In this document: positions 3,464 to 40,751 of the stretch, one piece after another
Layout of the letters: every line of letters starts with the position of its first letter
How positions within the stretch are numbered: the stretch's first letter is position 1
From: an uncultured Gammaproteobacteria bacterium
GTDB taxonomy: Bacteria; Patescibacteriota; Microgenomatia; Levybacterales; UBA12049
Direction of reading: 5' to 3'
Assembly (NCBI GenBank): GCA_964637955.1
Contig: CAZWXQ010000002.1
Coordinates: 199,782-263,781 of the forward strand
DNA length: 64,000 nucleotides
Notes under the pieces: generated by a model
Database searches by the model: none
Seen by the model: the letters and a program-made list of their open reading frames with translations, nothing else
Told to the model about the DNA's origin: nothing
Made by a program: the position numbers and the translations under genes

Positions 3464-3485
3464 AATTATCACCTCCTTCTAAAAC

Positions 3486-3510
3486 CACAAAAAAACTCCC
3501 TTACGGGAGT
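3486..3510 (-). terminator. Intrinsic terminator/attenuator hairpin ACUCCC-GUAA-GGGAGU plus U7 in the leader of the 3152..3463 gene
   Basis: Plus strand reads aaaaaaactcccttacgggagt. The minus-strand RNA has the hairpin followed by UUUUUUUGUGG, then the SD and ATG 25 nt later. Confidence 0.55.
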
Positions 3511-6216: not shown

Positions 6217-6253
6217 AATCCTAGCATTTCATAATTTAGTTGAATCGTCAATT

Positions 6254-6284
6254 TAGCCTCGTAAGGCCAGGCCTTGCAAGGCTA
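6254..6284. repeat. REP-like palindromic element, diverged copy (AGCCTCGTAAGGCC-A-GGCCTTGCAAGGCT)
   Basis: One of 5 copies of the 29-nt palindrome family. One mismatch and one wobble in the stem. Lies just downstream of the holB stop. Confidence 0.7.
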
Positions 6285-7108: not shown

Positions 7109-8827
7109 ATGGATCCATCTGCCCAACCATCCAGCCTAAGTTTAATTGATATTTTAGCAAGCGAGCGTCTTCTTACTCAAGCTCAGTATAATGACATTAA
7201 GTTAAAGGCAGCAACCCAAGGAGTTAGCGAAGAGTCAATAATTGAGAGTAATAGGCTTGTCACTGAGGAAAAGATGTCCGAAGCAAAGGCTAAAATGCTC
7301 GGCATTCCATTTGTTTCAATTGAAAATGCTTCTTTTTCACCTGAAGCACTGGGCTTGGTTCCTGAGGCTGTGGTTCAAAGATTTAATTTAATCCCCTTTC
7401 TTTATGATGCAAAAAGTCAAACGCTCTCGATTGCCATGGGAAATCCCGTAGATCTTGATGCGATTACTTTCGTCAGACAAAAAACAGGACTTATCATAAA
7501 AGCATTTGCTGCAGCTCCAAGTGCTGTTAAGGCGGCGATCGATATGCAATATAAACAAGAGCTAGTCGGTCAAGTTGGTGAAGCCCTCAAAGAAACTGCA
7601 CCAGATCCTAGTAAAGCAAAGACAGTTGATTCTACCCAAATTGCCCAGATTATAAAGGAAGCTCCTATTGCCAAGATTGTTTCGACGATTCTCGATTATG
7701 CTGTAAAAAGTAGATCATCAGATGTTCATATAGAGCCTCAAGATGACAGAGTTAGAGTTCGCTATAGAATTGACGGAATTTTATATGATCGACTTAGTCT
7801 TCCTAAGTCAGTTCAGGAAGCTGTTATTTCGCGTATAAAAATTCTTTCTGAAATGAAAATTGATGAGCATAGAATTCCTCAGGATGGAAGATTTAATTAT
7901 AAATCTGATGATAAAGAAGTAGATCTTCGTATTTCAGTTCTGCCTGCAAATCATGGTGAGAAAATTGTTATGCGTTTACTTCGTAAAAGTGGCGGAATAC
8001 CTACCTTACAGGAATTGGGGCTTGAAGGAACTGCCCTTCGAAATCTCGAGGTAAATATGCTTCGTCCCCACGGAATTATTTTGGTAACAGGTCCTACAGG
8101 TTCAGGAAAAACCACTACGCTTTATTCCGTTCTTAATAAGCTTAATAGTCCTAAGATAAATATTATGACTCTTGAAGATCCTGTCGAGTATGAAATGCCG
8201 GGGATAAATCAGGTTCAAGTTAACACTGCAGTTGGTTTGACATTCGCATCAGGGCTCAGGTCTTTCTTGAGGCAGGATCCAAATATAATTCTTGTTGGTG
8301 AAATTCGTGATAAAGAAACCACAGATTTGGCTGTTCAAGCAGCATTGACAGGTCATTTGGTGTTCTCTACTCTTCATACTTCAAATGCTGCTGGAGCAAT
8401 TCCGCGTCTTATAGACTTGGGAGCAGAATCATTTTTGCTTGCGTCATCGATTAGTGCGATTGTGGGGCAAAGAATCGTTAGAAAAATCTGTGCGACTTGT
8501 AAAACTGATTTTGACGCAGCCCCGGCAATCCTAGAAGACATAAAAAAAACTTTAGGAACTATGTTTCCTCAGGGTTCTATTAAATTTTCTAGAGGTCAGG
8601 GTTGCAGTGAATGCGGTAATTCTGGATACTTAGGAAGAGTCGGAATTTTTGAAGTGCTTCCTGTTACGCAAAAAATGTCAGACCTTATACTTAAACGTGC
8701 AGATACAAATACAATCGAAAATGAAGCCATTGCTGAGCATATGATTACTATGAAGCAAGACGGTTATTTAAAGTTAATTCGCGGAGTCACAACTCTGGAA
8801 GAAGTTTTGCGCGTTGCTCAGGAATAA
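7109..8827 (+). CDS. pilB: Type IV pilus assembly ATPase PilB (GspE family)
   Basis: 572 aa. GspII_E N-domain, Walker A GPTGSGKTTT, tetracysteine C..C...C..C motif. Confidence 0.9.
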   Translation: MDPSAQPSSLSLIDILASERLLTQAQYNDIKLKAATQGVSEESIIESNRLVTEEKMSEAKAKMLGIPFVSIENASFSPEALGLVPEAVVQRFNLIPFLYDAKSQTLSIAMGNPVDLDAITFVRQKTGLIIKAFAAAPSAVKAAIDMQYKQELVGQVGEALKETAPDPSKAKTVDSTQIAQIIKEAPIAKIVSTILDYAVKSRSSDVHIEPQDDRVRVRYRIDGILYDRLSLPKSVQEAVISRIKILSEMKIDEHRIPQDGRFNYKSDDKEVDLRISVLPANHGEKIVMRLLRKSGGIPTLQELGLEGTALRNLEVNMLRPHGIILVTGPTGSGKTTTLYSVLNKLNSPKINIMTLEDPVEYEMPGINQVQVNTAVGLTFASGLRSFLRQDPNIILVGEIRDKETTDLAVQAALTGHLVFSTLHTSNAAGAIPRLIDLGAESFLLASSISAIVGQRIVRKICATCKTDFDAAPAILEDIKKTLGTMFPQGSIKFSRGQGCSECGNSGYLGRVGIFEVLPVTQKMSDLILKRADTNTIENEAIAEHMITMKQDGYLKLIRGVTTLEEVLRVAQE

Positions 8828-8930
8828 AAAGAAATTTATCATATATTATTTATTATTGAATATTAAAAAAAATGATTAATTGACCAAATTCATTAAATAG
8901 TCTTTAATAAAACTAGGCAGAAATTATTTT

Positions 8931-9998
8931 ATGGAAATTCAGGAATTATTAAATCTTACAGTTAAAAATAAAGCATCGGATTTACATCTTTTGGTTGGTA
9001 TTCCTCCTACAATTAGAGTTGATGGGGTCCTTAATTCCCTTCAAAACTACCCTGTTGTTTCACCGCAGGCTATGGAGCAAATGATTTTTTCACTTCTAAA
9101 ACCAGCTCAAAAAGATGCGCTTCTTGCAAACAAAGAGCTTGATTTCTCTTTTGGAATTGGCGGTGGACCATATGGAGATATGGGTCGTTTCAGAGTGAAT
9201 ATTTATTACCAAAGAGGTTATATGTCAGGAGCATTCAGGTATCTTGAGCCGAAAATTAGAACCATTGAAGAGTTAAAGCTTCCACAAGTTGCTCACAATT
9301 TTGCCGCCCTTAGACAAGGGTTCGTTTTAGTAACCGGTCCTACAGGACACGGAAAATCGACCACTCTTGCAGCAATCATAAATGAAATAAATCTTTCCAA
9401 ACCTGCACATATCTTAACAATCGAGGATCCGATCGAATATATTTATCCTCAGGGAAAAAGTATAATTTCGCAGCGTGAAATGGGGGAAGATTCACACTCT
9501 TGGAACTATGCGCTTCGCGCAGCTCTTCGTGAAGATCCTGATGTAGTTTTAATCGGAGAAATGAGAGATCCTGAGACTATCTCTTCAGCTATAACTATTG
9601 CAGAAACTGGCCATTTGGTGTTCTCTACTCTTCACACGAATTCTGCTTCTCAAACTATTGATCGTATTATAGATTCATTTCCTGCGAACCAGCAGCCGCA
9701 AATTAGAACTCAACTTGCAGGAACTTTAAAAGGAATTATTTCTCAAAGACTTCTTCCTCAGATAAATGGAGGAAGAATACCAGCCGTAGAAGTGCTTATT
9801 GGAAATAATGCAGTTGCTACCAACATCCGAGAAGGAAAAACTCATCTTATTGATTCTATTATTGAAACATCACAAGATGTCGGAATGATAAGTCTTGAGT
9901 CTACTTTGTCCACTATGGTTTCAGCTGGAAGTATTAGCCTTGAGACTGCAAAGAGTTATGCATCTCATCCAGAAGATCTGCTAAGAATGGTAGCATAG
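8931..9998 (+). CDS. pilT: Twitching motility retraction ATPase PilT
   Basis: 355 aa. GPTGHGKSTT and ETGHLVFSTLHT motifs. Confidence 0.9.
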   Translation: MEIQELLNLTVKNKASDLHLLVGIPPTIRVDGVLNSLQNYPVVSPQAMEQMIFSLLKPAQKDALLANKELDFSFGIGGGPYGDMGRFRVNIYYQRGYMSGAFRYLEPKIRTIEELKLPQVAHNFAALRQGFVLVTGPTGHGKSTTLAAIINEINLSKPAHILTIEDPIEYIYPQGKSIISQREMGEDSHSWNYALRAALREDPDVVLIGEMRDPETISSAITIAETGHLVFSTLHTNSASQTIDRIIDSFPANQQPQIRTQLAGTLKGIISQRLLPQINGGRIPAVEVLIGNNAVATNIREGKTHLIDSIIETSQDVGMISLESTLSTMVSAGSISLETAKSYASHPEDLLRMVA

Positions 9999-10005
9999 CT
10001 TTCGT

Positions 10006-11208
10006 ATGAAATTTAGATATAAAGCTATTTCACAAGATGGAAAAAGAGTAAGGGGATTTATTGAGGCCAGTGAGAAAAAAGATGCCATAAATTATCTTCA
10101 TCAAAAAAACCTTATTCCTTTGGATATCAAGGAAGATAAAGAGCTTGAGTTTTTTAAAAAATTACCATTTGTAGGAAAAGTAAGCTCTAAGGATCTTGTA
10201 GTTTTTACAAGACAACTTTCCTCAATGCTTACCTCAGGTCTAACTCTTATTAAATCTCTTCAGATTTTAAAAAGCCAATTAAGCAATAAAACACTTCAAG
10301 AAACAATTGGTGGTTGCCTACTCGACCTTGAAGAAGGAAAGAAATTTTCAGAAGCTATATCCAAGTATCCTGAAATTTTTTCACCTGTTTATGTTTCGCT
10401 TGTTAGCGCAGGAGAGAAATCTGGGCTTCTTGATAAAGTTTTTTTACAATTAGCAACAAATCTTGAAAAACACTATAAATTAAAAAATAAGGTACGAGGT
10501 GCCTTAATTTACCCAATTATCGTAATAATGTTAATGATAGTGGTGACATTTATCTTGATGATTTTCGTAGTTCCTCAGTTATCCACGCTTTATGATGGAT
10601 TGGGGGTAGAACTTCCTTTCGCTACAAAACTTGTTGTAGGTATGTCATCAGGCGCTACAAAATTATGGCCTCTCATACTGGTTTTAGCTGCTTTAGGAAT
10701 TTATGGATTTTTAAGATGGAAAAAAACTCCCAGAGGACGAGAAATTTACGATAAGAAAATATTAAGCTTTCCACTTTTTGGAAAAATTATTCGAGGATCG
10801 ATACTTACTGAAGTTTCAAGAACATTTGGTTTATTGGTAGGTACAGGAACGTTAATAGTAGATGCTCTAAATCAGTGTGCAGCAGTAGCAGGAAATAAAG
10901 TATATGAAATCGCAATATATGAGATAACTAAAAAGGTTGAAAAAGGAGTTAGTGTGGGTGAAGCCATGGAACAATATGATATTTTCCCTCCTATTTTAGT
11001 TCAACTTATTAAGGTGGGAGAAGAAACCGGGAAGATTGATGAAAATGCACTTAAAGCTTCCGAATATTTCGAAGAAGAAGTAGATCAATCAGTTAAAACT
11101 CTTACTACCGCTATGGAACCATTTATTATGATAGTTCTTGGATTAGGTGTAGGATTTTTAGTATTTTCAGTAATATCACCAATTTATGGCTTACTGTCTG
11201 CATTCTAA
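10006..11208 (+). CDS. pilC: Type IV pilus inner-membrane platform protein PilC (GspF family)
   Basis: 400 aa. Two GspF repeats and three TM segments. Confidence 0.85.
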   Translation: MKFRYKAISQDGKRVRGFIEASEKKDAINYLHQKNLIPLDIKEDKELEFFKKLPFVGKVSSKDLVVFTRQLSSMLTSGLTLIKSLQILKSQLSNKTLQETIGGCLLDLEEGKKFSEAISKYPEIFSPVYVSLVSAGEKSGLLDKVFLQLATNLEKHYKLKNKVRGALIYPIIVIMLMIVVTFILMIFVVPQLSTLYDGLGVELPFATKLVVGMSSGATKLWPLILVLAALGIYGFLRWKKTPRGREIYDKKILSFPLFGKIIRGSILTEVSRTFGLLVGTGTLIVDALNQCAAVAGNKVYEIAIYEITKKVEKGVSVGEAMEQYDIFPPILVQLIKVGEETGKIDENALKASEYFEEEVDQSVKTLTTAMEPFIMIVLGLGVGFLVFSVISPIYGLLSAF

Positions 11209-11328
11209 TTTCCTATTGTCATTCTGAATCTTTTCAAAATCTCGATCCCAAAATAAATTTGGGATGACACAAAAAAGATTGGTTTGAGGCTAAAATACCT
11301 ATTGACATAAAGTTTTAGGTATGAATAA

Positions 11329-11886
11329 ATGTATATAGAAATGAAAAAACTTATAGACGCAATTAAAAAGGTACTTGGTTTGGATAAAAAATCAGGGGAT
11401 TCTTCTTCTGGATTCACCCTTATTGAGCTTTTAGTCGTAATAGCTGTTATTGGAATTTTAGCGGCAGCTCTTCTTGTTGCAATAGATCCTATTGATAAAG
11501 TAAGACAAGGAAATGATACAAAAGTTATAAATGATGTCAGAGCCATATATGACGGTGCAAACAGAGTTTATACTCAAACAGGTTCGTGGCCAACGGGTAC
11601 TAATCAAACTGCAATTGATAATATCGTAAATGCAAGTGAATTAAAATCTGCTCCAAAACCACCTAGTACCCCTTATGGTACTGCATATACAACGCTTGTT
11701 GCTACAGGAGGCAATGATTGGATAGCTGGTGGTATAATTTTGGCTAAAGCATCAAAGGCAAAATCAACAACAACAAATACAATCGGTGGTACTGCATGTG
11801 GTACTAATACATGTTACTTTATCGTTACAGCAGGTAAAGCATGCTACAAACCTGGGGCGCCAGTTGCTGGAGATGTCTGTCCTTAA
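11329..11886 (+). CDS. pilA: Major type IV pilin (prepilin, class III signal peptide) with long leader
   Basis: G|FTLIELLVVIAVIGILAA with E at +5. C-terminal Cys pairs. Leader of at least 24-28 aa. Confidence 0.8.
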   Translation: MYIEMKKLIDAIKKVLGLDKKSGDSSSGFTLIELLVVIAVIGILAAALLVAIDPIDKVRQGNDTKVINDVRAIYDGANRVYTQTGSWPTGTNQTAIDNIVNASELKSAPKPPSTPYGTAYTTLVATGGNDWIAGGIILAKASKAKSTTTNTIGGTACGTNTCYFIVTAGKACYKPGAPVAGDVCP

Positions 11887-11923
11887 CTTGAAGTTTAATA
11901 AAATGATGTTCATGCTCACATAA

Positions 11924-12742
11924 ATGAGCTTTTTTTTTGACAATTATTTATTATTACCCGGATTTATTTTATTTTTAATTGGTTTATTTTTCGGTTCTTT
12001 TCTTAACGTACTTATTGATAGACTCCCCAATGATGAAAGTATTCTTGGAAGATCGCATTGCGAGAAATGTAATCACACATTAAACTGGAAAGATCTAATT
12101 CCTCTTTTATCCTTTGCTTTTCTAAGTGGTCGCTGCAGATATTGTCATACTTCCCTTTCCTATCAATACCCATTTCTTGAGATATTTACGGGAATCATGT
12201 TTGCAGGAACATTTTTATTTACCATTTATCATATACCATTTACAAATGGTCAATGGTCAATGGTCAATGGTCAATTGCTTTCCTTGGTATATCGTTTAAT
12301 TATAGTAAGCTGTCTCATCGTTATTTTCTTTGCAGATTTAAAATATAAAATAATCCCCGATGAGATTCTTCTGGTTTTAGGCGCAACTATTTTTGTCTGG
12401 TTAATTTTTATGAGCCCGAGTCAGATTATCGTTCATTTGTTCGCAGGTCTGGTATCATTCTTATTCTTTCTCTCAATTTATTTACTCACCAAAGGTCGTG
12501 GAATGGGTTTTGGCGATGTTAAATTCGCTTTCGTTATTGGATTACTTCTGGGGTTTCCTGGTACGCTTTTAGCTTTATACATAGCATTCTTGACAGGAGG
12601 ACTCGTGGGCATCATACTAATTTTATGGAAGAAAAAAAGAATGAAATCCGAGGTGGCTTTCGGTCCTTTTTTGGTAATAGGAACTTTTCTAAGCTTTTTC
12701 TTTTCCCCGGTCCTAATTCCAAGAATTCTCCAATTCTTTTAA
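11924..12742 (+). CDS. pilD: Prepilin peptidase / N-methyltransferase PilD (A24 family)
   Basis: N-terminal CEKCNHTL...CRYCHTSL zinc motif, FGDVKF Asp box, multiple TM segments. Confidence 0.85.
   Translation: MSFFFDNYLLLPGFILFLIGLFFGSFLNVLIDRLPNDESILGRSHCEKCNHTLNWKDLIPLLSFAFLSGRCRYCHTSLSYQYPFLEIFTGIMFAGTFLFTIYHIPFTNGQWSMVNGQLLSLVYRLIIVSCLIVIFFADLKYKIIPDEILLVLGATIFVWLIFMSPSQIIVHLFAGLVSFLFFLSIYLLTKGRGMGFGDVKFAFVIGLLLGFPGTLLALYIAFLTGGLVGIILILWKKKRMKSEVAFGPFLVIGTFLSFFFSPVLIPRILQFF
12245..12272 (+). repeat. Heptanucleotide tandem repeat (AATGGTC)x4 inside the pilD coding sequence
   Basis: acaaatggtcaatggtcaatggtcaatggtcaattg read directly. The unit length is not a multiple of 3. Confidence 0.9.
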
Positions 12743-12748
12743 AATCAA

Positions 12749-13507
12749 ATGTATTATGTCTATGTCTTGCAAAATAAAATTAGATCTCAAATCTATGTAG
12801 GATCTACAAATGATTTGAGACGGAGGCTAGCAGAGCATAATCAAGGAAAAGAGAGATCGACAAAAAGATATATGCCTTGGAAGTTAATTTATTATGAGGC
12901 ATTTAATAGTGAAAGTTTTGCAAGACAAAGAGAAATGAAACTTAAATATAACGGAAATGCTATGAAAGAATTAAAAAAAAGAATTGGACTGGATTTACCC
13001 AGCACCTGTTCATCTGAACTAGAGCATAAAGAGAGCCCTTTGCATAGAGGCTTAGGTGAAAATAATAGATTAATTAAAAAGCCAACAGGTGCTGGATTTA
13101 CTCTCATAGAGCTTCTTGTGGTGATTGGAATAATAGGTGTTCTCTCGGCAGGAGTTATCATTGCGATTGATCCTGTGAAACAAATCCAAAGAGCTCACGA
13201 TAAGCAAAGAATTACTGATTTAAAGCAAATTCAGACTGCTCTAGAGCTTTACAGAGCAGATAATGGTCTTTATCCAGCAAATGTAGATTGTGCTGGGGGT
13301 TTAACTGCAACAGTTGACGGAGATACAGTTACTTATTTAAGTGAGGTACCATGTGATCCTAAAGACAACTCTACTTCTTATCCGTATGTTAGAGCTTCTG
13401 GAAACACATCAGACTATACTTTAACAGCGTGCTTTGAAAGCGATAAAGACTATACAGGGTCAGGATCACCTTGCACTAATTATAAATATGAAGTAACTGC
13501 TCCATAA
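12749..13507 (+). CDS. In-frame fusion of a GIY-YIG nuclease-like domain (aa 1-80) to a prepilin with long leader (alternative start ATG at 12962)
   Basis: N-terminus YVYVLQNKIRSQIYVGSTNDLRRRLAEHNQG...WKLIYYE resembles short GIY-YIG proteins. Then LPSTCSSELEHKESPLHRGL...KKPTGAG|FTLIELLVVIGIIGVLSAG prepilin motif. No stop codon between the two parts. Confidence 0.6.
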   Translation: MYYVYVLQNKIRSQIYVGSTNDLRRRLAEHNQGKERSTKRYMPWKLIYYEAFNSESFARQREMKLKYNGNAMKELKKRIGLDLPSTCSSELEHKESPLHRGLGENNRLIKKPTGAGFTLIELLVVIGIIGVLSAGVIIAIDPVKQIQRAHDKQRITDLKQIQTALELYRADNGLYPANVDCAGGLTATVDGDTVTYLSEVPCDPKDNSTSYPYVRASGNTSDYTLTACFESDKDYTGSGSPCTNYKYEVTAP

Positions 13508-14022
13508 TGAAAAATGGAATTAAAAAAGACATTTCTCCCAGAAGTTTTATAGCAAGAAACTCAGGCTTTACTTTAATTGAGCTACTTATAGTAATAACGA
13601 TTATCGGAATACTTTCAGGTGCTTCATTCGCAGTTTTAAATAAATTTAATGGCTCTCAAAATCTAAATATTGCCTCAGAAAATATAAAAAATGAACTTAA
13701 TTTCGCTAAGTCAAATGCATTGTCGCAGGTTTTAAAAAAGTGTACGACTGGCAGATTTGATGGATATAGTTTTCATTACGATCAAGATAGAAATGAATAT
13801 TGGGTCGAAGAAGAATGTACACCTGCTGTCGCAAATAACATAGTTGGTGGTGTAAAAAAGAAACTTCCAGATAAAGTGACATTTCAAGGCAGTGGAGAAA
13901 TTCTTTTTGAACCCTTAGAAGGTGGAGCTGACTTAAGTTCAGCAAGAGTTATAGTTATTCAGAACGAAAGTGGAAGTCGAAGTAAACCTGTAACTGTTTA
14001 TAAATCAGGAGTAATTGAATGA
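13507..14022 (+). CDS. Minor pilin / pseudopilin (prepilin N-terminus)
   Basis: Leader MKNGIKKDISPRSFIARNSG then G|FTLIELLIVITIIGILSG. Confidence 0.75.
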   Translation: MKNGIKKDISPRSFIARNSGFTLIELLIVITIIGILSGASFAVLNKFNGSQNLNIASENIKNELNFAKSNALSQVLKKCTTGRFDGYSFHYDQDRNEYWVEEECTPAVANNIVGGVKKKLPDKVTFQGSGEILFEPLEGGADLSSARVIVIQNESGSRSKPVTVYKSGVIE

Positions 14023-14507
14023 AAAAAAAGAATAAAGGTGCGATTCTTATCGAAGCTATTTTGGGAATTACTATAGCTACGATCATAACAACAGGTTTAG
14101 TCACTGCCCTAGTTTCATCTTTAAGTAATTCCACGTTTTCCAGGGGTCAAACTATAGCTACTGGTTATGCTCAAGAGTCAATGGAACTGATTAGAAGTTT
14201 GAAGGATGTCGATTATGGTTCTTTGGAAGACAGTGTTGGGAGTTGTACTGAAGATAATCCTTGTAAATTTGATCTAAGCACAGGAGACGGTAGACTTGTT
14301 TCTGGCGTTGAATCTATCGATGATGATAGTAATATAGAGTTTGACAGATCTGTTGTGTTAAGTAACGTTAGCGACGAATGTCAAGGGTCCGTGTATGCGA
14401 AGGTTACTGTTGCCTGGCAGGATAGTAAATGTAGTGGTAGTGCCAAATGTCATAAAGTTAACCTTAGATCCTGTTTTTCAAATTTAGATTATGCGCCGTT
14501 ACCTTAA
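14019..14507 (+). CDS. Minor pilin (PilV/GspI-like), short leader
   Basis: MKKKNKG|AILIEAILGITIA. Confidence 0.65.
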   Translation: MKKKNKGAILIEAILGITIATIITTGLVTALVSSLSNSTFSRGQTIATGYAQESMELIRSLKDVDYGSLEDSVGSCTEDNPCKFDLSTGDGRLVSGVESIDDDSNIEFDRSVVLSNVSDECQGSVYAKVTVAWQDSKCSGSAKCHKVNLRSCFSNLDYAPLP

Positions 14508-15177
14508 TAAAAATCATAATAAGAGGGATTTACCCAGCACCTGTTTACCAGAGCTGGAGCATGAAGAAAAAGCTTTGCATAGAGGCTTAGATGAAGATAT
14601 TAAATTGGTTAGAAAATCAGCTGGTGCTGGGTTTAGCTTAATTGAGCTACTTGTCGGCATGGCAATTACTGTGACTGCAACCACTATTATACTTGCGATA
14701 GTAATGTCTGCTTTTCGGGTAAGTAGCAAGGCTACGACTGCAGATTTAGCTCGTCAAAACGGAAATTACGCAATGAATAGGATGATTAAGATGATTCAAT
14801 TTGCGGATAGTTATAATGGCAGGAGTACGAGTCTTCTTTCCACAGCGGGTGAAAGTGGTTACCGTGTTAATGATTGTGATGGATCAAATAATACTGCAAT
14901 TAGCATTACATATAAAAATGAAGAAAAGATACTGCAATGTCGAGGGCACAACTCGCTTTACCTCATAGATCCTGTCGATACAACTAAAAATGAACAACTG
15001 ATTCGTACCAGCAGTGTGGCTGTAAGCAATTGTAATATTAGTTGTTTAGAAGTTAGGCCGGGCGCATCCCCTGTTATAACTATAAAATTTGATTTAACAA
15101 TCGGCGAATCCGACGCTGCAATAGAAAAAAGATCGTCGATACCATTTAGAACAAGTGTAAAAATGCGTAATAAATGA
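14491..15177 (+). CDS. Pilin-like protein with 47-aa conserved leader; paralog of the 12749 gene C-terminal part
   Basis: MRRYLNKNHNKRDLPSTCLPELEHEEKALHRGLDEDIKLVRKSAGAG|FSLIELLVGMAI. About 80% nucleotide identity to 12991-13110. Confidence 0.7.
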   Translation: MRRYLNKNHNKRDLPSTCLPELEHEEKALHRGLDEDIKLVRKSAGAGFSLIELLVGMAITVTATTIILAIVMSAFRVSSKATTADLARQNGNYAMNRMIKMIQFADSYNGRSTSLLSTAGESGYRVNDCDGSNNTAISITYKNEEKILQCRGHNSLYLIDPVDTTKNEQLIRTSSVAVSNCNISCLEVRPGASPVITIKFDLTIGESDAAIEKRSSIPFRTSVKMRNK

Positions 15178-16091
15178 GGTGGTTTATTGACACTAGGCAG
15201 CCTAGTTGTTACTCTAAATATATGCCATTTAATGTGAATAGGCGTTTTCGGGATGAATCGGGACAAGTGCTTTTAATAGTAGTTCTTGTGGCTGTTATAT
15301 CTCTCACAGTAGGACTAGCTGCAGTAAGTAGATCTATAACCAATACAAGAGTATCTACGGAAGAATCAAATTCCCAAAAAGCTCTTTCAGCTGCCGAGGC
15401 AGGGCTTGAAGCTCAGATTAATAAAGCAAATGAAAATCCCGATGCTGCTATACCAGAACTTGATAAAAATTTTGATAGCAGTACAGGTTATAAAGCAACC
15501 GTCACTAAAAATACTGACCCACAGATTTTAATTAATAATGCTGAAGTAGATGTATTAAAGACTGAAGGAGCAGACGTTTGGTTGTCTAAATACCCAGATT
15601 TTACTGATCAAAAAAGTCCAAACATCAGTGTTTATTGGAGCGCAAACTCAGGTCCATGCTCAAATGACGCAGCTATAGAAATAGTAATATTAAGAGGAAG
15701 AGATACTACTCCGGCTGCGAAGAATGATCCGATACTTGAGAGATATGCTGTTGATGGGTGTAGTTCAAGACCTGGTGGCGATAATAATTTTGATGATGCA
15801 AGTGCATCAACGGATCGTGGTAGCAGCGTAGCCTCACTTACTCTCAAAGGAAAAAAGTTTGACTATAGATATAATATTCCAAACCAAATTATTAATGGTT
15901 ATATTATGAGAATTATTCCTATTTATAATGACGCAAAAATAGGAGTAAGTAGTGATATACCTCTTCCAGCTCAGGGTTTTGATATAGAATCTGAAGGTAC
16001 TTCTGGAGAAACAAAGCGAAAAGTAAAAGTATTCCAGAGTTTTCCTACTGTTCCTATTGAAATTTTCCCTTATAATTTATTTAACCCATAA
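15174..16091 (+). CDS. PilX-like minor pilin / pilus-associated protein (likely start at internal Met near 15219)
   Basis: ESGQVLLIVVLVAVISLTVGLAAVSRS resembles the PilX N-terminal domain. Confidence 0.5.
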   Translation: MRWFIDTRQPSCYSKYMPFNVNRRFRDESGQVLLIVVLVAVISLTVGLAAVSRSITNTRVSTEESNSQKALSAAEAGLEAQINKANENPDAAIPELDKNFDSSTGYKATVTKNTDPQILINNAEVDVLKTEGADVWLSKYPDFTDQKSPNISVYWSANSGPCSNDAAIEIVILRGRDTTPAAKNDPILERYAVDGCSSRPGGDNNFDDASASTDRGSSVASLTLKGKKFDYRYNIPNQIINGYIMRIIPIYNDAKIGVSSDIPLPAQGFDIESEGTSGETKRKVKVFQSFPTVPIEIFPYNLFNP

Positions 16092-16094
16092 AAT

Positions 16095-17138
16095 ATGAAT
16101 AAAAAATCATTTGGTCTAGATATTGGAAATTCCACTATAAAAGCTGTAGAAGTCGAGCTTACTAAAGCTGGGCTTGATCTTTCGGCTTGCATTATCTCCC
16201 CGACTCCTACTAAAGGAATGATTTCAGAATCAGAGGCAGATGAAGAAGAAATGGCAAATGCAATTAAAAAAACTATTGCTGATGCAGGAATAAAGAATAA
16301 AAATGTTCACATAGCTCTTCCGGATAATCAGGTATATACAAAAGTCATCGACATGCCTTATTTATCAGACAGGGAGCTTTCTTCAGCTATTTATTGGGAG
16401 GCAGAACAGTATTTGCCAATTCCTCTTGCTAACGTTTCCCTTGCATGGAATGTTCTTTCAAAACCTGTAAAGCACTCATCATCTGATAAAATCCGTGTTC
16501 TTATGGTAGGTGCCCCTACTATTCTTGTAAATAAGTATCAGAAAGTGATGGAAATGGCAGAGCTAAATATAACCTCCATCGAGACAGAGGCACTAGCGGT
16601 AATTAGAGCACTTACCTACTCTCTTCCTGAAAATAGTATTGCGCCAACAATCATAATTCACATTGGAGAAATCAGTAGCTCTCTGGCTATAGTTATAAAA
16701 AGTGATTTATATTTTCTTTATTCAATTCCATATGGCAGTCTCGCTATAAACAGAGCTATTTCTGCTGATTTTGGCTTAACAGATGTGCAAGCTGAAGAAT
16801 ATAAAAGAGCATACGGAATTCTGAAAAATCCAATGGGGCAAAGAATAGGTCAGGCAACTGGGCCAATTCTTTCTTCAATCCTTGCTGAAGTTAAAAAAGC
16901 TATATTTTTCTACACAGATAAATACAAAAACAGTAAGATTGAGCAGATAGTAATATCTGGTGAAACCGCGAAGCTTCCTGGAATTGACATGTTTTTTACT
17001 GATGGATCAGGAATAGAAACTGCGATAGGAAATCCATGGAAGTCTTTTATCAGCGATAAAATTCCTAAAGAAATCCTAACCAACGCTCCTGCCTACTCTA
17101 CTGCAGTTGGGCTTGCCCTTAGAGATTATGAGCGCTAG
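16095..17138 (+). CDS. pilM: Type IV pilus assembly protein PilM (actin-like ATPase fold)
   Basis: 347 aa. N-terminus FGLDIGNSTIKAVEV. Confidence 0.8.
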   Translation: MNKKSFGLDIGNSTIKAVEVELTKAGLDLSACIISPTPTKGMISESEADEEEMANAIKKTIADAGIKNKNVHIALPDNQVYTKVIDMPYLSDRELSSAIYWEAEQYLPIPLANVSLAWNVLSKPVKHSSSDKIRVLMVGAPTILVNKYQKVMEMAELNITSIETEALAVIRALTYSLPENSIAPTIIIHIGEISSSLAIVIKSDLYFLYSIPYGSLAINRAISADFGLTDVQAEEYKRAYGILKNPMGQRIGQATGPILSSILAEVKKAIFFYTDKYKNSKIEQIVISGETAKLPGIDMFFTDGSGIETAIGNPWKSFISDKIPKEILTNAPAYSTAVGLALRDYER

Positions 17139-17646
17139 TATTAATTTAGTTAATCAGAAGAATCCTAAAAAAGATAGGCAAGAAAAAGTTCGTAAGATAA
17201 AAGGAATTGCTTATTCTGTTCTTGCTATTACAGCGCTTGTTGTAATAATTATTTTTTCTCTTGAATATAGATTTTCTGCATCTTACGTTAAAAAGCAGCA
17301 GGCGAAGTTACTTGCTGAATTAGACCAATATTCTCAAAAATCTGCCAATTTTTTTATAGTTAGTTCAAATTTGACGGAGATTGGAAATCTTTTAAGTCAA
17401 AGAAAAAACTATCAAGAAACCACCAAGGAAATTTTTAATGTTAAACCTTCTGATGTTACTGTTACAGAATATACATTTGATGAATCAGGAGTAAAGTTAA
17501 GTGCTTCTACTCCTTCACTTGAAAGTATTGATAGTTTTTTAAATTCCTTAATTGAATTAAAGCAAAATAAGAAGATAAATAGTGTAGTTTTGCAAAGCCT
17601 GTCAATGGGAGAAGGTAAATATACATTAGAAATTACAATGCAATGA
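17107..17646 (+). CDS. pilN: PilN-like pilus assembly protein (single TM)
   Basis: Position after pilM. N-terminal TM helix and coiled coil. Confidence 0.55.
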   Translation: MGLPLEIMSASINLVNQKNPKKDRQEKVRKIKGIAYSVLAITALVVIIIFSLEYRFSASYVKKQQAKLLAELDQYSQKSANFFIVSSNLTEIGNLLSQRKNYQETTKEIFNVKPSDVTVTEYTFDESGVKLSASTPSLESIDSFLNSLIELKQNKKINSVVLQSLSMGEGKYTLEITMQ

Positions 17647-19528: not shown

Positions 19529-20191
19529 TCAAGAAGATAACTTAGTAAGTGCAGCTTCTGCTGCTTGCTCTTCTGCTTCTTGCTTACTCTTACCTTTTCC
19601 CTCGCCCAGTAGCTCATCCTGAACAAATACTCCTACCGTGAATTTTCGGGCGTGAGCTGGTCCTTCTTCAAGAGTAACTTTGTAATGAGGTGAGCCTTGT
19701 TTTCTTGATTGGACGAGCTCTTGGAATCTGCTTTTCGGATCTTTAAGCATATTTTTTTCTAAAAATGCATCAGCTTGAGGGATAACTGCCATATAAATAA
19801 AGTCTTTAACTGCTTCTACGCCTTGATCTATAAAAAGTGCTCCTAAATAAGCTTCAAATGTGTCTGCTAAAATGCTTTGATTATTTCGTCCACCTGACTC
19901 CTCTTCTCCTTTTGAGAGCCTTAGTTTTTCTCCGAGATTACAATCTTTTGAAAGTATGGCAAGCATTTTCGTATTTACCAAAAGAGATCTGAGGTTGGTG
20001 AGCTTTCCTTCATCAAAGTCTGGATATTTTTCAAATAAGTAACTTGAAACTATAAAAGAAAGGATGCTGTCTCCTAGAAACTCTAATCTTTCGTTTGAAG
20101 GGACTTTTTCTTTAACCTCATTTAAATATGATCTGTGAGTTAAGGCTTCTTGAAGTAATTTTTCGTTTGAGATTTTTGGGATTTGAATCAT
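19529..20191 (-). CDS. rnc: Ribonuclease III
   Basis: ERLEFLGDSILS signature and C-terminal dsRBD. Confidence 0.9.
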   Translation of the reverse strand: MIQIPKISNEKLLQEALTHRSYLNEVKEKVPSNERLEFLGDSILSFIVSSYLFEKYPDFDEGKLTNLRSLLVNTKMLAILSKDCNLGEKLRLSKGEEESGGRNNQSILADTFEAYLGALFIDQGVEAVKDFIYMAVIPQADAFLEKNMLKDPKSRFQELVQSRKQGSPHYKVTLEEGPAHARKFTVGVFVQDELLGEGKGKSKQEAEEQAAEAALTKLSS

Positions 20192-20234
20192 AATTTATTA
20201 TATACTCTTTATGCTTAGGCTTACAATTAATGTA
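20192..20234 (-). promoter_or_regulatory. rnc promoter (TTGTAA-16/18-TATATAAT), ATG ~5 nt after -10 (leaderless)
   Basis: Near-identical to the hflX promoter at 38484-38513. Confidence 0.45.
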
Positions 20235-20293
20235 GTATGCCCTGAGCTTCATTTTGCATGATTTAGTTACAAAATGAAGCGAGAAGGGTATAC
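20235..20293. repeat. 59-nt palindromic element (GTATGCCCTGAGCTTCATTTTG..CAAAATGAAGCGAGAAGGGTATAC), copy 1 of 2
   Basis: Second copy at 38417-38475 in the same orientation relative to the downstream gene. 9-bp outer and 11-bp inner stems. Confidence 0.8.
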
Positions 20294-20294
20294 C

Positions 20295-20642
20295 TCAGCC
20301 ATTTATTATTTTGCCTAGAGCGCCGTTGATAAAAGCAGGGCTATTGTCTCCCCCGTATTCTTTTGCTAGTTCGATTGCTTCATCAACGATTACTTTTGGT
20401 GGTTCTTTTTTCGCTATTAAAAGCTCAAATGTGGCAAGTCTAAGAATAGCTAAGTCAGTTTTATTAATTTTATCTATCGGAAATTCAGGGGCTGCGGCTT
20501 TAATTTTTCCATCAATAAACTCAATGTGTGTCATTACTTCTTTTGCATCTGGACCGATTGGTTGGGTGTGGAATTCTACTTTAAAAATGTCCTCTACTAT
20601 TTTTTGTCTTTTTTTATGGCGAGGGTCAAGCGCTGTTTTCAT
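20295..20642 (-). CDS. nusB: Transcription antitermination factor NusB-like
   Basis: 115 aa. LAILRLATFELL helix typical of NusB. Confidence 0.55.
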   Translation of the reverse strand: MKTALDPRHKKRQKIVEDIFKVEFHTQPIGPDAKEVMTHIEFIDGKIKAAAPEFPIDKINKTDLAILRLATFELLIAKKEPPKVIVDEAIELAKEYGGDNSPAFINGALGKIING

Positions 20643-20861: not shown

Positions 20862-20943
20862 ATGTGTATTTTAGCTTATTTGAGGCTAGCTTGCAATAAG
20901 GACTAAATAATAGTTGTAATACATTGAATTTAAGGTAATGATT

Positions 20944-20972
20944 AGCCTCGCAAGGCCAGGCCTTGCGAGGCT
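20944..20972. repeat. REP palindrome AGCCTCGCAAGGCC-A-GGCCTTGCGAGGCT (perfect 14-bp arms), 5-prime flank of the RAYT gene
   Basis: Read directly. Flank is GATTAGCCTCG...GAGGCTG. Confidence 0.9.
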
Positions 20973-20997
20973 GACATCAAGGTGATATCGTTAGATT

Positions 20998-21666
20998 ATG
21001 CCATCGAAAAATTCAAGAAAAGAGTTTTTAGAAAATGGATATTATCATATTTACAATCGTGGTGTAGAAAAAAGAAAAATTTATCTAGATCAACAAGATT
21101 ATGCTGTCTTCCTTTCTTATCTTAAAGAATATTTGACTGAGAAAAATGAAAAAGAGCTTTATGAAATTTTAAATAATCCACAAACTTCTTATCAAGAAAA
21201 AGACAAAATATTAAAGCAAATCAGATTAAATAATTTTTATCAAGAAATAAAATTAGTCGCATATTGTCTGATGCCAAATCATTTTCATTTTTTTATAAAA
21301 CAAAATAAATATAACTCTATTTCTAAATTTATGAATTCATTATGTACGAGATATACTATGTACTTTAACAAGAAATATGATAGGGTAGGTTTTCTATATC
21401 AAGGAGTTTATAGGGCTGTTTTAATTAAAAACGAATCTCAATTTTTACAGCTTTCTCGTTATATACATAAACAGGCATTGCCTTTTCAGCCATCATCATT
21501 TAAAAGATATTTGAATCAGAATAAAACAGAGTGGATATATCCGGAGGAAGTATTATCCTATTTTTCGATCGAGCATCCAAAATTAAGTTATCAAGATTTT
21601 GTTATTGGAGAAAACGAAGAAAATATAAATTTTGCCTTAAAAGATATTATTTTGGATGATGATTAG
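20998..21666 (+). CDS. IS200-like HUH tyrosine transposase (REP-associated tyrosine transposase, RAYT)
   Basis: 222 aa. GYYHIYNRGVEKRKIY N-terminus, HUH motif LMPNHFHFFI, catalytic YIHKQ (Y-x3-Q). Flanked on both sides by identical REP palindromes. Confidence 0.75.
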   Translation: MPSKNSRKEFLENGYYHIYNRGVEKRKIYLDQQDYAVFLSYLKEYLTEKNEKELYEILNNPQTSYQEKDKILKQIRLNNFYQEIKLVAYCLMPNHFHFFIKQNKYNSISKFMNSLCTRYTMYFNKKYDRVGFLYQGVYRAVLIKNESQFLQLSRYIHKQALPFQPSSFKRYLNQNKTEWIYPEEVLSYFSIEHPKLSYQDFVIGENEENINFALKDIILDDD

Positions 21667-21692
21667 CCTCGCAAGGCCAGGCCTTGCGAGGC
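21664..21692. repeat. REP palindrome (perfect copy), 3-prime flank of RAYT; supplies the RAYT stop codon (gatTAGcctcg)
   Basis: Identical 29-nt palindrome. Same flank orientation as the 20944 copy. Confidence 0.9.
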
Positions 21693-21827
21693 TGGAGAGT
21701 CCCTTTGTCTTAAAATTTGCCTATGGGTTCCTGCAAATGCTTTTATAGTAATTAAATAAGTGTTATTATAATTAAAGAGAGCCGTGGGCCCTATATATAA
21801 TAGTGTTTTAGTAATACTACTATGGGC

Positions 21828-26421: not shown

Positions 26422-26431
26422 TTTTACCTAC

Positions 26432-26460
26432 AGCCTCGCAAGGCCTGGCCTTGAGAGGCT
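26432..26460. repeat. REP palindrome, diverged copy (AGCCTCGCAAGGCC-T-GGCCTTGAGAGGCT) between convergent gene ends
   Basis: One arm substitution. Located between the stop of the 957-aa gene and the recG stop. Confidence 0.7.
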
Positions 26461-26468
26461 AGATAGCT

Positions 26469-36921: not shown

Positions 36922-37860
36922 CTACAGATTCTTAAGAATAGTTTTTAATTTTTCCAATGACTCCAAATCATGAATTGAAGCTGTCAAGATTTCTTTCCCT
37001 TTAAAATATTTGGCTTTTTCTTTTACTTCATCTTCGGTTGCTAGATCGGTTTTGGTAAGAAGTATTATTTCTTTTTTATTCAGGAGTTCTTTATTAAATT
37101 TGGAAAATTCTTCTCTAACTGTTTCATAACTTTTTAGCGGATTTTCGTCATTACTTGCTATACAATGAAGAAGGATTTTGGTTTTTTCGATGTGCTTTAG
37201 GAATTTTATTCCTAGTCCTTTTCCTTCTGCTGCACCCTCGATTAGTCCTGGGATATCAGAAAGGATTAGTTTATCCAGTACGCCGAGATTTGGTTCAAGA
37301 GTCGTGAACTGATAGTTACCTATCTTAGGATTGGCATTAGTGAGTTCTTTAAGAAGCGAGCTTTTTCCTGCATTTGGAAGTCCGATTAATCCTATGTCTG
37401 CAATTAAAGTTAGAGTTAGATGGAGAGTTGTAGATTGGCCGATTCGCTTTACTGTTTGTTTGCCTTCCATCTTGGTCAGGTGATAGCTCCCTAATTCTCC
37501 TTCCCCACCCTTTGCCATTAGAACCTTATTCTTAGTATCTGTGAGCTCATATTCACGACCATATTTTTCATCTTTTATTTTTGTTCCGACTGGCACGAGA
37601 ACTATAATGTCAGAAGCATCTTTTCCATTGTGATTCTTTATAAGTCCTTTGGCGCCGTGCTCTGCTTTTATAGCATTTCTGTTTTGAAATCTGGAGAGAT
37701 CATTTTCGTTATGTGATGCTAGAAAATATATGCTTCCACCACGTCCTCCATCTCCACCACTAGGGCCGAACTTAACACCTTTTCGACTTCCTATAAATGT
37801 TTGTGCACCTTCCCCACCGTTCCCTGCTATTAAATCAATTCGTACATCATCAACTAACAT
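36922..37860 (-). CDS. obg: GTPase Obg/CgtA
   Basis: Obg fold GNGGEGAQTF..GPSGGDGGRGGSIYF. G1 GLIGLPNAGKSSLL. Confidence 0.9.
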   Translation of the reverse strand: MLVDDVRIDLIAGNGGEGAQTFIGSRKGVKFGPSGGDGGRGGSIYFLASHNENDLSRFQNRNAIKAEHGAKGLIKNHNGKDASDIIVLVPVGTKIKDEKYGREYELTDTKNKVLMAKGGEGELGSYHLTKMEGKQTVKRIGQSTTLHLTLTLIADIGLIGLPNAGKSSLLKELTNANPKIGNYQFTTLEPNLGVLDKLILSDIPGLIEGAAEGKGLGIKFLKHIEKTKILLHCIASNDENPLKSYETVREEFSKFNKELLNKKEIILLTKTDLATEDEVKEKAKYFKGKEILTASIHDLESLEKLKTILKNL

Positions 37861-37888
37861 ATGTATATTTTACCAGAGGATGTATAAA

Positions 37889-38347
37889 TTATATGGGGGA
37901 AGATGGGGGAATTGTTGGATCTAGATTATCTAACGCTTTTCTAAACACTCTCAAGGCTTGATTGACACCAATAATTGTAGTCATATTATCTGCATTTGAT
38001 CTTTCATGCCAAATAAGAGTTCCATCGAGCGATGAATCACAATGCCAGATTCTTCCATCTGGAGTAGCATAATATTCTGGTTCATAAACACGAGTAAGTC
38101 CCATTACTTCAGATTCACCAATTCTTCCTAGGGGAATCACATGAATAGGCGCCTTGACAATTTCATTTCCAACTTTAACTTCTACTGTTCGTTGCGGATA
38201 TCCTCCCGCTTCTATTAATTTTGCAGATTCTCTTCTCAAGAGTACTTCAGCAGTATCTCTATGTCTAGATTCTATGATTCTCAATTCGGCTTGTGTTTTA
38301 GAAATATCGTCTTGCAAAGCTTCAATAGTTGGTCTTGGTGTTTCCAT
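37889..38347 (-). CDS. Hypothetical protein (152 aa)
   Basis: ORF. Leaderless promoter TTGACA-17-TAGAAT lies 6 nt upstream. Confidence 0.45.
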   Translation of the reverse strand: METPRPTIEALQDDISKTQAELRIIESRHRDTAEVLLRRESAKLIEAGGYPQRTVEVKVGNEIVKAPIHVIPLGRIGESEVMGLTRVYEPEYYATPDGRIWHCDSSLDGTLIWHERSNADNMTTIIGVNQALRVFRKALDNLDPTIPPSSPI

Positions 38348-38352
38348 GCTGG

Positions 38353-38381
38353 CATTCTATCAAATGATTCTAAATGTGTCA
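38353..38381 (-). promoter_or_regulatory. Sigma70 promoter TTGACA-17-TAGAAT, ATG 6 nt after -10 (leaderless)
   Basis: -35 at plus 38376-38381. -10 at plus 38353-38358. Confidence 0.5.
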
Positions 38382-38416
38382 AAGAGTATCATAAATATAA
38401 TTAAAGCTTAGTTAAG

Positions 38417-38475
38417 GTATACCCTTCTCGCTTCATTTTGAACAAAAATCATGCAAAATGAAGTTCAGGGCATAC
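38417..38475. repeat. 59-nt palindromic element, copy 2 of 2 (inverted relative to the 20235 copy on plus-strand coordinates)
   Basis: Its reverse complement is near-identical to 20235-20293. Sits between divergent promoters, directly upstream of the hflX promoter. Confidence 0.8.
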
Positions 38476-38483
38476 TACATTAT

Positions 38484-38513
38484 TTGTAAACCTGAGTTTA
38501 TGGAGTATATAAT
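38484..38513 (+). promoter_or_regulatory. hflX promoter TTGTAA-N16/18-TATATAAT; ATG 7 nt downstream
   Basis: Same module as the rnc promoter. Confidence 0.45.
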
Positions 38514-38520
38514 GTAGAGC

Positions 38521-39627
38521 ATGATTAAAAGTGAAAAAGAAAAGCTAAAATTTCTGGCAGTACATGTAATTAATCCAAGAGCAGATAGAGAGGAATCTAT
38601 CCAAAACGGTGAGGAATTGGAATCTTTGATCTCAACTCTTGGTGGAGAGATTGAAAATCGAATAATCCAAAAGCTAGAACGGCCTGATTTGAGAACTTTC
38701 GTGGGTCGAGGAAAAGTTCAATCTATTATTGAAATCCTTAAAGAAAAACAGGCTGACATAGTAGTTCTAAATGCTATGGCAAAACCAGGGCAGGTTTTTA
38801 ATTTAAAATCAGAACTCCAGAAAGAATTTCCTCAGATTGAGGTTTGGGATAGGGTAGATCTTATTCTTCATATTTTTGATAAACATGCTGTTTCTTCTGA
38901 AGCGAAATTACAAATTGAATTAGCTAGGATGCGGTATATGGGGCCGCGCATTTATGGCATGGGAATGGTGATGTCTCGCCAAGGTGGCGGAATTGGCACT
39001 GTAGGTGTTGGAGAAACTAATACTGAGCTTATGAAACGACACTGGAGAGATGAAATGAAAAATGTGCAAGATCAGCTTAAAAAGCTAACAGAAGAGCGCG
39101 AAAAACAGATCGAAAGAAGAAAAGAGCAGGGTTATAAGACAGTGTCTATTGTGGGTTACACAAACGCTGGCAAGACTTCCCTTTTTAATCTACTGACTAA
39201 GAAAGCCAATCTAGTAGAAAATGCCTTGTTTGCTACTCTAGATAGCGCTGTTGGGAAGTTATATTTACCAGATTTGGGACGAGAGATATTGCTTACTGAT
39301 ACGATTGGATTTATAAGAAGTTTGCCCCCAAGACTTATCGATGCATTCAAGTCTACTCTCATAGAGTCAATACATGCTGATGTACTTTTGCATGTAATTG
39401 ATGCAAGTGACCCTGAAATGGATTTAAAGATAGACGTCGTAAATAGAATACTTGGTGAAATAGGGAGAACAAATGAGAGAATGGTTTTCGTATTTAATAA
39501 GATTGATAAAGCTGATATAGACGCGTTAATCGATAAATACAGTTATTATTCACCGGTATTTATTTCTGTTAAGAAAGAAGAAGGAATCGAGGAGCTAAAG
39601 AATGAGATATCTAAATTACTGCTCTGA
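38521..39627 (+). CDS. hflX: GTPase HflX
   Basis: HflX N-domain. G1 GYTNAGKTSLFN, G3 DTIGF. Confidence 0.85.
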   Translation: MIKSEKEKLKFLAVHVINPRADREESIQNGEELESLISTLGGEIENRIIQKLERPDLRTFVGRGKVQSIIEILKEKQADIVVLNAMAKPGQVFNLKSELQKEFPQIEVWDRVDLILHIFDKHAVSSEAKLQIELARMRYMGPRIYGMGMVMSRQGGGIGTVGVGETNTELMKRHWRDEMKNVQDQLKKLTEEREKQIERRKEQGYKTVSIVGYTNAGKTSLFNLLTKKANLVENALFATLDSAVGKLYLPDLGREILLTDTIGFIRSLPPRLIDAFKSTLIESIHADVLLHVIDASDPEMDLKIDVVNRILGEIGRTNERMVFVFNKIDKADIDALIDKYSYYSPVFISVKKEEGIEELKNEISKLLL

Positions 39628-40403: not shown

Positions 40404-40585
40404 AATAATCACCTCCTTTCTTTTAATTTATTTGCTTTTCCGTTAGGAAAAGTTTAGTAAAATCTTATGCTATCTTTAGGTCGAATATATTTAAGTCTCT
40501 TATTGAGTACCGAATGGTACGAGATTTAGAGTTAATTATCCTAACTAATGACGGTTAGGACTTTAGTCACTTTACTTTTTTGACC

Positions 40586-40610
40586 ACAAAAAACCTCCCA
40601 TTCGGGAGGT
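40586..40610 (-). terminator. Leader terminator/attenuator ACCUCCC-GAAU-GGGAGGU plus U6, ~180 nt upstream of the 40403 start
   Basis: Plus strand reads acaaaaaacctcccattcgggaggt. An upstream P1 hairpin ACUUCC-UUUAAC-GGGAGGU could pair alternatively with the terminator 5-prime arm. Confidence 0.55.
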
Positions 40611-40724: not shown

Positions 40725-40751
40725 TTAAAACCTGTTAGCCTCGATTAGCCT

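Follow-up and report, generated by a model that had tools for sequence, protein, structure and literature searches.

The question raised by this locus is why two genes which lie on opposite strands and 18 kb apart, rnc for RNase III and hflX for the GTPase HflX, are each directly preceded by the same 99-nt unit. The window, as we call the whole stretch of 64,000 nucleotides that was analysed, has a low GC content (33-39%), and homologues of its RNase III and HflX at 70-95% identity come from assemblies of Dojkabacteria/Patescibacteria (CPR); the bacterium belongs to Candidatus Dojkabacteria. In both copies the unit consists of a 59-nt imperfect palindrome that runs into TTGTAA-18 nt-TATAAT, and family matches identify the upstream neighbours as NusB on the rnc side and Obg on the hflX side (Table 1). 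The two copies align without gaps at 87 of 99 identical positions, were picked up by a repeat search as arms of 88% complementarity, and find each other by blastn inside the window at E = 5e-31. All three analyses bear out an earlier note on this DNA, which had described a duplicated module of palindrome and promoter at these two places; both copies are also, as had been claimed, oriented alike relative to the gene that follows, on the (-) strand for rnc and on the (+) strand for hflX. Copy 1 was recovered at 100% identity in the independent Logan assembly L128 (SRR14271332) and copy 2, likewise at 100%, in L117 (SRR14271336). Since both copies are thus present in independent assemblies of two samples, an assembly artefact is ruled out.

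Table 1. Positions in the 64,000-nt window of the two copies of the unit, their target genes and the neighbouring features discussed in the text.
Feature	Position	Strand	Context or basis
Copy 1, 99-nt repeat	20197..20295	-	between nusB stop codon (TGA, 20295-20297) and rnc
Copy 1, net inserted DNA, 90 nt (TATA + 86 nt)	20203..20292	-	empty sites of L021, L120/L121 and L122 compared with the window
Copy 1, 59-nt imperfect palindrome	20235..20293	-	folds and pattern search
Copy 1, -35-like hexamer TTGTAA, element-borne	20221..20226	-	promoter scan
Copy 1, -10 hexamer TATAAT, at element/target junction	20197..20202	-	5 nt 5' of rnc ATG (20189-20191)
rnc (RNase III), downstream of copy 1	19529..20191	-	TIGR02191, 251 bits
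Copy 2, 99-nt repeat	38415..38513	+	divergent spacer between ORF152 and hflX
Copy 2, net inserted DNA, 90 nt (TATA + 86 nt)	38418..38507	+	empty sites of L119 and L118
Copy 2, 59-nt imperfect palindrome	38417..38475	+	folds
Copy 2, -35-like hexamer TTGTAA	38484..38489	+	promoter scan
Copy 2, -10 hexamer TATAAT	38508..38513	+	7 nt 5' of hflX ATG (38521)
hflX (GTPase HflX), downstream of copy 2	38521..39627	+	TIGR03156, 362 bits
Native hflX promoter remnant, left of the insertion	38391..38421	+	homologous to L119 ATTAACCTAATAATGCTAAGTTGAGGTATA; ends in the left TATA
Element ends			TACCCTTCTCGCTTCATTTTG / CAAAATGAAGCTCAGGGCA
514-nt insertion between obg and hflX	37877-38390		relative to L118 and L119
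ORF152, 152 aa	37889-38347	-	within the 514-nt insertion
Genes with TATAAT near the start, examples	4551, 5781, 40137, 56840	-
Genes with TATAAT near the start, examples	7109, 60930, 61336	+
RAYT-like Y1 (IS200-like) transposase gene	20998-21666	+	Pfam Y1_Tnp, 46 bits
GC-rich palindrome GATTAGCCTCGCAAGGCCAGGCCTTGCGAGGCTG flanking the RAYT-like gene	20939-20973, 21660-21694
Further copies of the GATTAGCCTCGCAAGGCCAGGCCTTGCGAGGCTG palindrome	6251-6284, 26428-26461, 40746-40779
Intrinsic terminator family D9	3477-3507, 40576-40606, 46611-46641		GGGAGG/CCTCCC-type stem and T-run, after (-) strand genes

Folding and pattern searches agreed on the anatomy of the palindrome, which is the one read from the letters before: a 9-bp outer stem (GTATACCCT/AGGGCATAC) with one A.C mismatch and an 11-bp inner stem (GCTTCATTTTG/CAAAATGAAGC) which encloses a 13-nt loop, with an asymmetric internal loop between the two stems. 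In copy 2 the inner stem is closed by G.T, in copy 1 by G-C. Relative to shuffled sequence, the z-scores of the hairpin folds range from -3.2 to -4.4 as RNA and from -4.4 to -6.6 as DNA, and a second, small hairpin within the promoter tail folds in copy 2 and is weak in copy 1. The coding capacity of the element amounts to a promoterless frame of 10-12 codons at most. A short peptide gene in the hairpin (ATG CAA AAT GAA ..., 10-12 codons) was rejected, as the frame is equipped with neither a -10 nor a ribosome-binding site and its stop codon is not conserved. Similarly, an integron attC site was dismissed: the RYYYAAC/GTTRRRY core sites are missing at the ends, and reading the sequence revealed no integrase nearby.

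Within the window, the unit is confined to these two positions. The stem pattern GCTTCATTTTG-N13-CAAAATGAAG occurs at two places only, and so does the segment following the hairpin when used as a search pattern (0.00 expected for each in 100 shuffles); patterns and blastn yielded no further copy in the rest of the 64 kb. Beyond the window, the relaxed pattern GCTTCATTTTG-N10-16-CAAAATGAAG hit 19 loci in genome_contigs, all of them chance matches with unrelated flanks, and the same relaxed pattern minus its first G hit 95 stretches in metagenome_contigs, again all by chance and with unrelated flanks. Two pattern scans of viral_contigs gave chance matches only. These collection scans demanded an exact match of 20-21 specified stem bases, so that diverged copies are missed by them. 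Searches by blastn against phage and plasmid collections returned zero matches.

The 3' part of the unit has the features of a promoter. Behind the palindrome and a short stretch (ACTACATTA), the promoter scan detected TTGTAA-18-TATAAT, which agrees with the sigma-70 consensus at 10 of 12 positions in both copies. Between the -10 hexamer and the start codon lie 5 nt in the case of rnc and 7 nt in that of hflX, as had been stated before, and this geometry is typical of the window: in a crude set of 69 predicted genes (ORFs), eight have an exact TATAAT 5-8 nt before the start codon, where 0.2 would be expected from its window-wide frequency and about 0.55 from its intergenic frequency. At internal in-frame ATGs the same arrangement was found in none of 281 cases. 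The hexamer is also present in relatives that lack the element, at 5 nt from the ATG of rnc (L021, L120, L122) and at 6-7 nt from that of hflX (L119, L118). Leaderless transcripts are established in other bacteria, and with these as a guide our analysis suggests that many mRNAs of this lineage, those of rnc and hflX included, may be leaderless; our literature search found nothing on leaderless promoters in Patescibacteria. A minority of the genes in the window carry GGAGGTG Shine-Dalgarno sites instead.

A stable hairpin immediately 5' of a promoter, which in copy 1 begins only 2 nt after the nusB stop codon, might be taken for a cassette in which the hairpin stops transcription from upstream and the tail restarts it. 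We hold this to be extremely improbable. No T-run follows the stem, the terminator scan was empty at either copy, and elsewhere this genome uses canonical terminators with a GC-rich stem and a T-run (family D9, Table 1). In addition, copy 2 has no upstream gene on its strand that could be terminated.

Comparison with related assemblies revealed that both positions are empty elsewhere. In L021, L120/L121 and L122, with RNase III proteins that are 90%, 85% and 83% identical to that of the window, respectively, nusB and rnc are separated by 11-13 nt and the element is absent. Likewise, the obg-hflX spacing is 55-61 nt and free of the element in L119 and L118, the HflX proteins of which share 95% and 89% identity with that of the window. 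Nothing resembling the unit was found in about 75 kb covering the loci of these relatives. The empty site of L119 maps onto the window in three pieces (37858-37876, 38391-38421 and 38508-38526), with the middle piece ending in ...AAGGTATA (GGTATA at 38421) and the right piece opening with TATAATGT (TATAAT at 38508); the match to 38391-38421 has a score of 31, which none of 500 shuffles reached. From this map it follows that 86 nt and a second TATA were added at hflX, and that the obg-hflX interval received two separate insertions, the 514-nt segment with ORF152 and the element. The native promoter DNA upstream of hflX (...GCTTAGTTAAGG) is still recognisable at 38391-38417, displaced by 90 bp.

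ORF152 was considered as a part of the element and rejected, since about 30 nt of native promoter DNA lie between the two and mark it as a separate insertion. It has a near-consensus promoter of its own, TTGACA-17-TAGAAT, with the ATG 6 nt further on. Neither Pfam nor NCBIfam has a family for its product, and a search of 5.8 billion proteins returned the protein itself and nothing else; an exhaustive search added four weak, repeat-like matches (E ~1e-6), in which several stretches of long proteins were matched. The AlphaFold model, with a pLDDT of 45, is unusable.

The junction at rnc reads GGCTGAGGTATA[..]TATAATAAATTATG in the window and AGCTAGGTATAATAAATCATG in L120. Spelled out from the end of nusB, L120 has AAT AGC TAG GTATAAT AAATC ATG, and the window has AAT GGC TGA GGTATA[CCC...GAGTA]TATAAT AAATT ATG. 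Thus, the targets at rnc and hflX are both (G/A)AGG-TATA-AT, and the insertion point and the orientation relative to the gene are identical. The sequence (G/A)AGGTATAAT is present at both sites, and a single further AGGTATAAT occurs in the whole 64 kb. At both loci TATA (or TA) flanks the element on either side, as compared to a single TATA(AT) in the empty sites; the repeat is 2-4 bp long and lies in AT-rich promoter DNA, and for these reasons it is weak proof of a staggered cut. As TATA is duplicated, the boundary of the insertion in copy 1 is ambiguous by 4 nt. The element was accordingly gained at two sites, at the same target point, in the same orientation, with a duplicated TATA and with the promoter consensus restored. 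The last codon and the stop codon of nusB differ among the relatives (AAT TAA, AGC TAG and CAA TAA; GGC TGA in the window), and the bases encoding the NusB C-terminus overlap the region just 5' of the -10 box of rnc, a stretch in which promoter and coding sequence are shared.

These empty sites bear directly on the earlier proposal of co-regulation, in which the palindrome would serve rnc and hflX as a shared operator or UP-like element recognised by a DNA-binding protein. Counted from the presumed transcription start, the palindrome covers about -43 to -102, which is in the range of activator sites and UP elements; moreover, the stems are nearly invariant, the loop is variable, and the orientation is the same at both genes. 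However, none of the orthologous promoters that we compared, from five related lineages (L021, L120/L121, L122, L118 and L119), has the element, and the identical spacing and orientation follow from the duplication of one unit and hence do not count as independent observations. Half-sites with one mismatch occur elsewhere in the window at the level of chance (4 compared to 3.0 expected), and the 24 bp between the half-site centres are an unusual spacing for a dimeric operator. The functional link between the two genes is also weak, as most genes near either site are related to translation, which is the norm in this compact genome. The shared operator was therefore not sustained, and we now consider it improbable.

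The degree of divergence gives an indication of the age of the copies. Between the window and the nearest relatives, coding DNA is 78-83% identical and third codon positions are 56-62% identical. As the two copies are 88% identical and the relatives less so, the copies separated long after the lineages split. It follows that at least one copy, and by parsimony both, is a gain in this lineage. The differences are distributed unevenly over the unit: 4 of 13 positions differ in the loop, 6 of 18 in the spacer and 1 of 8 in the linker, compared to 1 of 40 in the stems and none of 6 in either the -35 or the -10 hexamer. This clustering of the 12 differences in loop and spacer versus stems and hexamers is significant (Fisher p ~0.001), and the only stem difference is the change from G-C to G.T. 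The pattern supports the view that the pairing or the sequence of the arms, as well as both hexamers, may have mattered after the duplication; two copies are too few for a covariation analysis. The conserved arms could reflect recognition by a transposase or a use by the host.

Such a structure might also act as RNA, either as a site for RNase III cleavage in nusB-rnc read-through transcripts, which would uncouple rnc from nusB or serve rnc autoregulation, or as the gene of a small structured RNA as proposed in the earlier note. The autoregulation of rnc by RNase III cleavage of its leader is established in E. coli. The hairpin folds strongly as RNA on either strand, its stem, some 20 bp interrupted by an internal loop, would suit RNase III, and copy 1 is located between the co-oriented genes nusB and rnc, which are nearly contiguous in the relatives. 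Hairpins of the Correia elements are indeed RNase III substrates (PMC2649163). Still, copy 2 lies between divergent promoters and the scan detected no promoter that would transcribe it, no terminator delimiting a small RNA was found by the terminator scan at either copy, and the element is not conserved in relatives. The base changes favour neither strand: the stem change gives G.U on the sense strand, and the outer A.C would become G.U only on the antisense strand. No Rfam family matches at either locus: at gathering thresholds, Rfam 15 identified nothing but 3 tRNAs in the whole window, and searching both loci at E up to 10 added noise-level matches to eukaryotic miRNAs and snoRNAs only. The small RNA thus found no backing, and a role as RNA in any of these forms appears highly improbable to us.

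On balance, we regard the unit as probably a lineage-specific, non-autonomous and non-coding MITE-like element of about 86-90 bp that carries a promoter. The 59-nt hairpin palindrome makes up its 5' side, and the 3' side is a promoter tail of 30 nt comprising TTGTAA and a spacer ending in ..GAGTA; the unit entered the -10 boxes of two existing promoters at (G/A)AGG-TATA-AT. The final TA of the tail meets the TATAAT/TAAT of the target, by which the -10 hexamer is rebuilt and its spacing from the start codon is retained. With the native upstream promoter pushed off by about 90 bp, the -35 and spacer of the element would be expected to take over, and both rnc and hflX may still be transcribed, probably leaderless from the A of the ATG, through the same imported promoter half. 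An insertion at rnc or hflX that splits the -10 box and fails to restore it would probably be strongly deleterious; survival of exactly these insertions is what would be expected if the element brings a promoter half. The hairpin might most likely be the recognition or inverted-repeat structure for a mobilising enzyme, and any host role would be secondary and recent, for instance in blocking passage or binding a protein at about -43 to -102, or as an RNase III target in read-through from nusB. That a transposition-like process moved the element is inferred from two events, corresponding to the two known copies. Other mobile DNA of this lineage, which speaks for such an element, is found close to both: a RAYT-like Y1 transposase gene flanked by REP palindromes near copy 1, and the 514-nt ORFan insertion beside copy 2.

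The unit deviates from a classical MITE in its strong inverted repeat, which is internal and biased to the 5' side and is followed by 30 nt of unpaired tail. Terminal inverted repeats were not found, the ends sharing only TAC(C/T)C when parsed with a TA duplication, and no partner transposase for the element was identified. A mobile MITE had already been named in the earlier note as the reading to be adopted if further copies were scattered randomly with respect to promoters. The comparison of filled and empty sites favours something MITE-like, while the extra copies at random positions did not turn up in the window, in the ~75 kb of relatives or in the exact-core scans.

The same footprint could have arisen differently, by one insertion, likeliest at hflX, and a subsequent copying of the unit to the rnc promoter by template switching or ectopic repair, that is, a segmental duplication. 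Microhomology-mediated copying between promoters leaves the same footprint, so that the TATA duplication fits both models. The native promoters have short homology in common exactly at the boundaries of the unit, with TGAGGTATA at the left one and TATAAT at the right one, amounting to about 11 nt (T(G/A)AGGTATAAT); only two copies are known, 18 kb apart, and their termini have no inverted repeats. In addition, the tail resembles the native hflX promoter of the relatives (CCTGAGTT..GGAGTATA compared to GCTAAGTTGAGGTATA), a hint that the unit originated at hflX, although this likeness needs indels and may merely reflect a shared promoter consensus. However, homology of 6-9 nt per side is very short for such an event, the arrival of the first copy at the same point of a -10 box is left unexplained, and the conservation of stems and hexamers is as expected of a functional element. 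For these reasons we think a duplication unlikely.

Among the systems known from other bacteria, promoter-bearing MITEs, above all the Correia elements (CREE), are functionally closest to the promoter-carrying element, and it belongs to no sequence family searched. In Neisseria, a TA target is duplicated by Correia elements, which bring promoters with them and whose hairpins are cut by RNase III (PMC2649163, PMC10969869). Like these elements (CREE/NEMIS), the unit is non-coding, is of a similar size (~70-157 bp for Correia elements), has TA on either side and is situated just 5' of genes, as Correia elements often are; shared features are also the outward-facing sigma-70-type promoter parts and a long hairpin, which in the Correia elements can be bound or cut by RNase III when transcribed (PMC2649163, PMC10969869). 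Presence or absence varies between related genomes in both cases. In contrast, the ends of Correia elements are inverted repeats of 26 bp, and a genome contains more than 100 of these elements, whereas the termini of the element share TAC(C/T)C and two copies are known. Unlike in Correia elements, the palindrome fills the 5' two thirds and leaves an unpaired promoter tail as the 3' third, both insertions lie inside a -10 hexamer, and there is no similarity in sequence. The element further resembles promoter-creating insertion sequences and MITEs in that it brings a -35 to a working distance from the -10 at the junction, by which expression of the downstream gene would be maintained or rewired. 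In classical hybrid promoters, however, an outward -35 comes to lie beside a resident -10, whereas here the resident -10 is split and regenerated exactly, and the ATG still follows the regenerated box after 5-7 nt, as a leaderless transcript would need. Our literature search found nothing on MITEs in Patescibacteria.

A second group to be compared are the REP/RAYT (Y1/HUH) and IS200/IS605-derived elements, which resemble the unit in that a hairpin repeat lies beside a short specific sequence and long terminal repeats are lacking. REP/RAYT and IS200/IS605-derived repeats are recognised as single-stranded DNA. A RAYT-like transposase gene is situated 700 bp from copy 1 (Table 1); its match to the NCBIfam REP-associated tyrosine transposase (38 bits) is below the cut-off. 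Together with the palindromes around it, this gene forms an arrangement of the REP/RAYT type in a CPR genome. The REPs beside it (GCCTCGCAAGGCC/GGCCTTGCGAGGC) are, unlike the element, GC-rich and much shorter, and the two are unrelated in sequence; similarity of the element to the REP family D1 (TAGCCTCGCAAGGCCAGGCCTTGCGAGGCTG; 5 copies) was nil. The element also differs from IS200/IS605 in having one large AT-rich hairpin instead of distinct left-end and right-end hairpins. Both copies follow (G/A)AGGTATA, which would fit a fixed target of the IS200/IS605 type (4-5 nt, located 5' of the insertion and not duplicated), though with a single conserved hairpin in place of subterminal ones at both ends. 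A link between the element and the neighbouring RAYT/REP system is possible in principle; the sequence gives it no support.

Taking the target preference further, it might be speculated that the element is a cassette that homes to promoters: it would recognise the leaderless -10 region (G/A)AGG/TATAAT, probably as single-stranded DNA by means of its hairpin and an HUH/Y1 enzyme (e.g. the RAYT-like protein encoded 700 bp away), insert in a single orientation, and swap the upstream half of the promoter with the start site left undisturbed. We consider this extended version quite unlikely. If it were true, such an element could spread via the promoters of essential genes in a tiny, gene-dense CPR genome without killing its host, and would rewire housekeeping expression on its way.

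Judged by the sequences at hand, the unit is best seen as a hairpin-plus-promoter module, a young and lineage-specific insertion or duplication that would have rebuilt the promoters it interrupted, and not as a conserved regulatory site. The shared module is thus no evidence of an ancestral rnc-hflX regulon, and annotators should not infer co-regulation from it. If the promoter-carrying element is real, it would be a clear CPR case of a small repeat element that splits a -10 box and regenerates the box exactly, and it would illustrate how DNA that is selfish or duplicated survives where almost 90% of the genome is coding and promoters abut start codons. The TATAAT located 5-8 nt before the ATG, which would imply widespread leaderless transcription in the lineage, may prove more broadly useful than the element.

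Two further regions of the window were compared with L021. The RAYT-like gene is absent from the corresponding place in this relative. A type IV pilus or type II secretion-like cluster at 7109-17646 is syntenic in L021; it includes two paralogous secretion ATPases, with 74-77% DNA identity over matched stretches (8079-8415 and 9325-9673), and several pseudopilin genes with an N-terminal motif coding for GFTLIELL (11410, 13094, 13564 and 14629).
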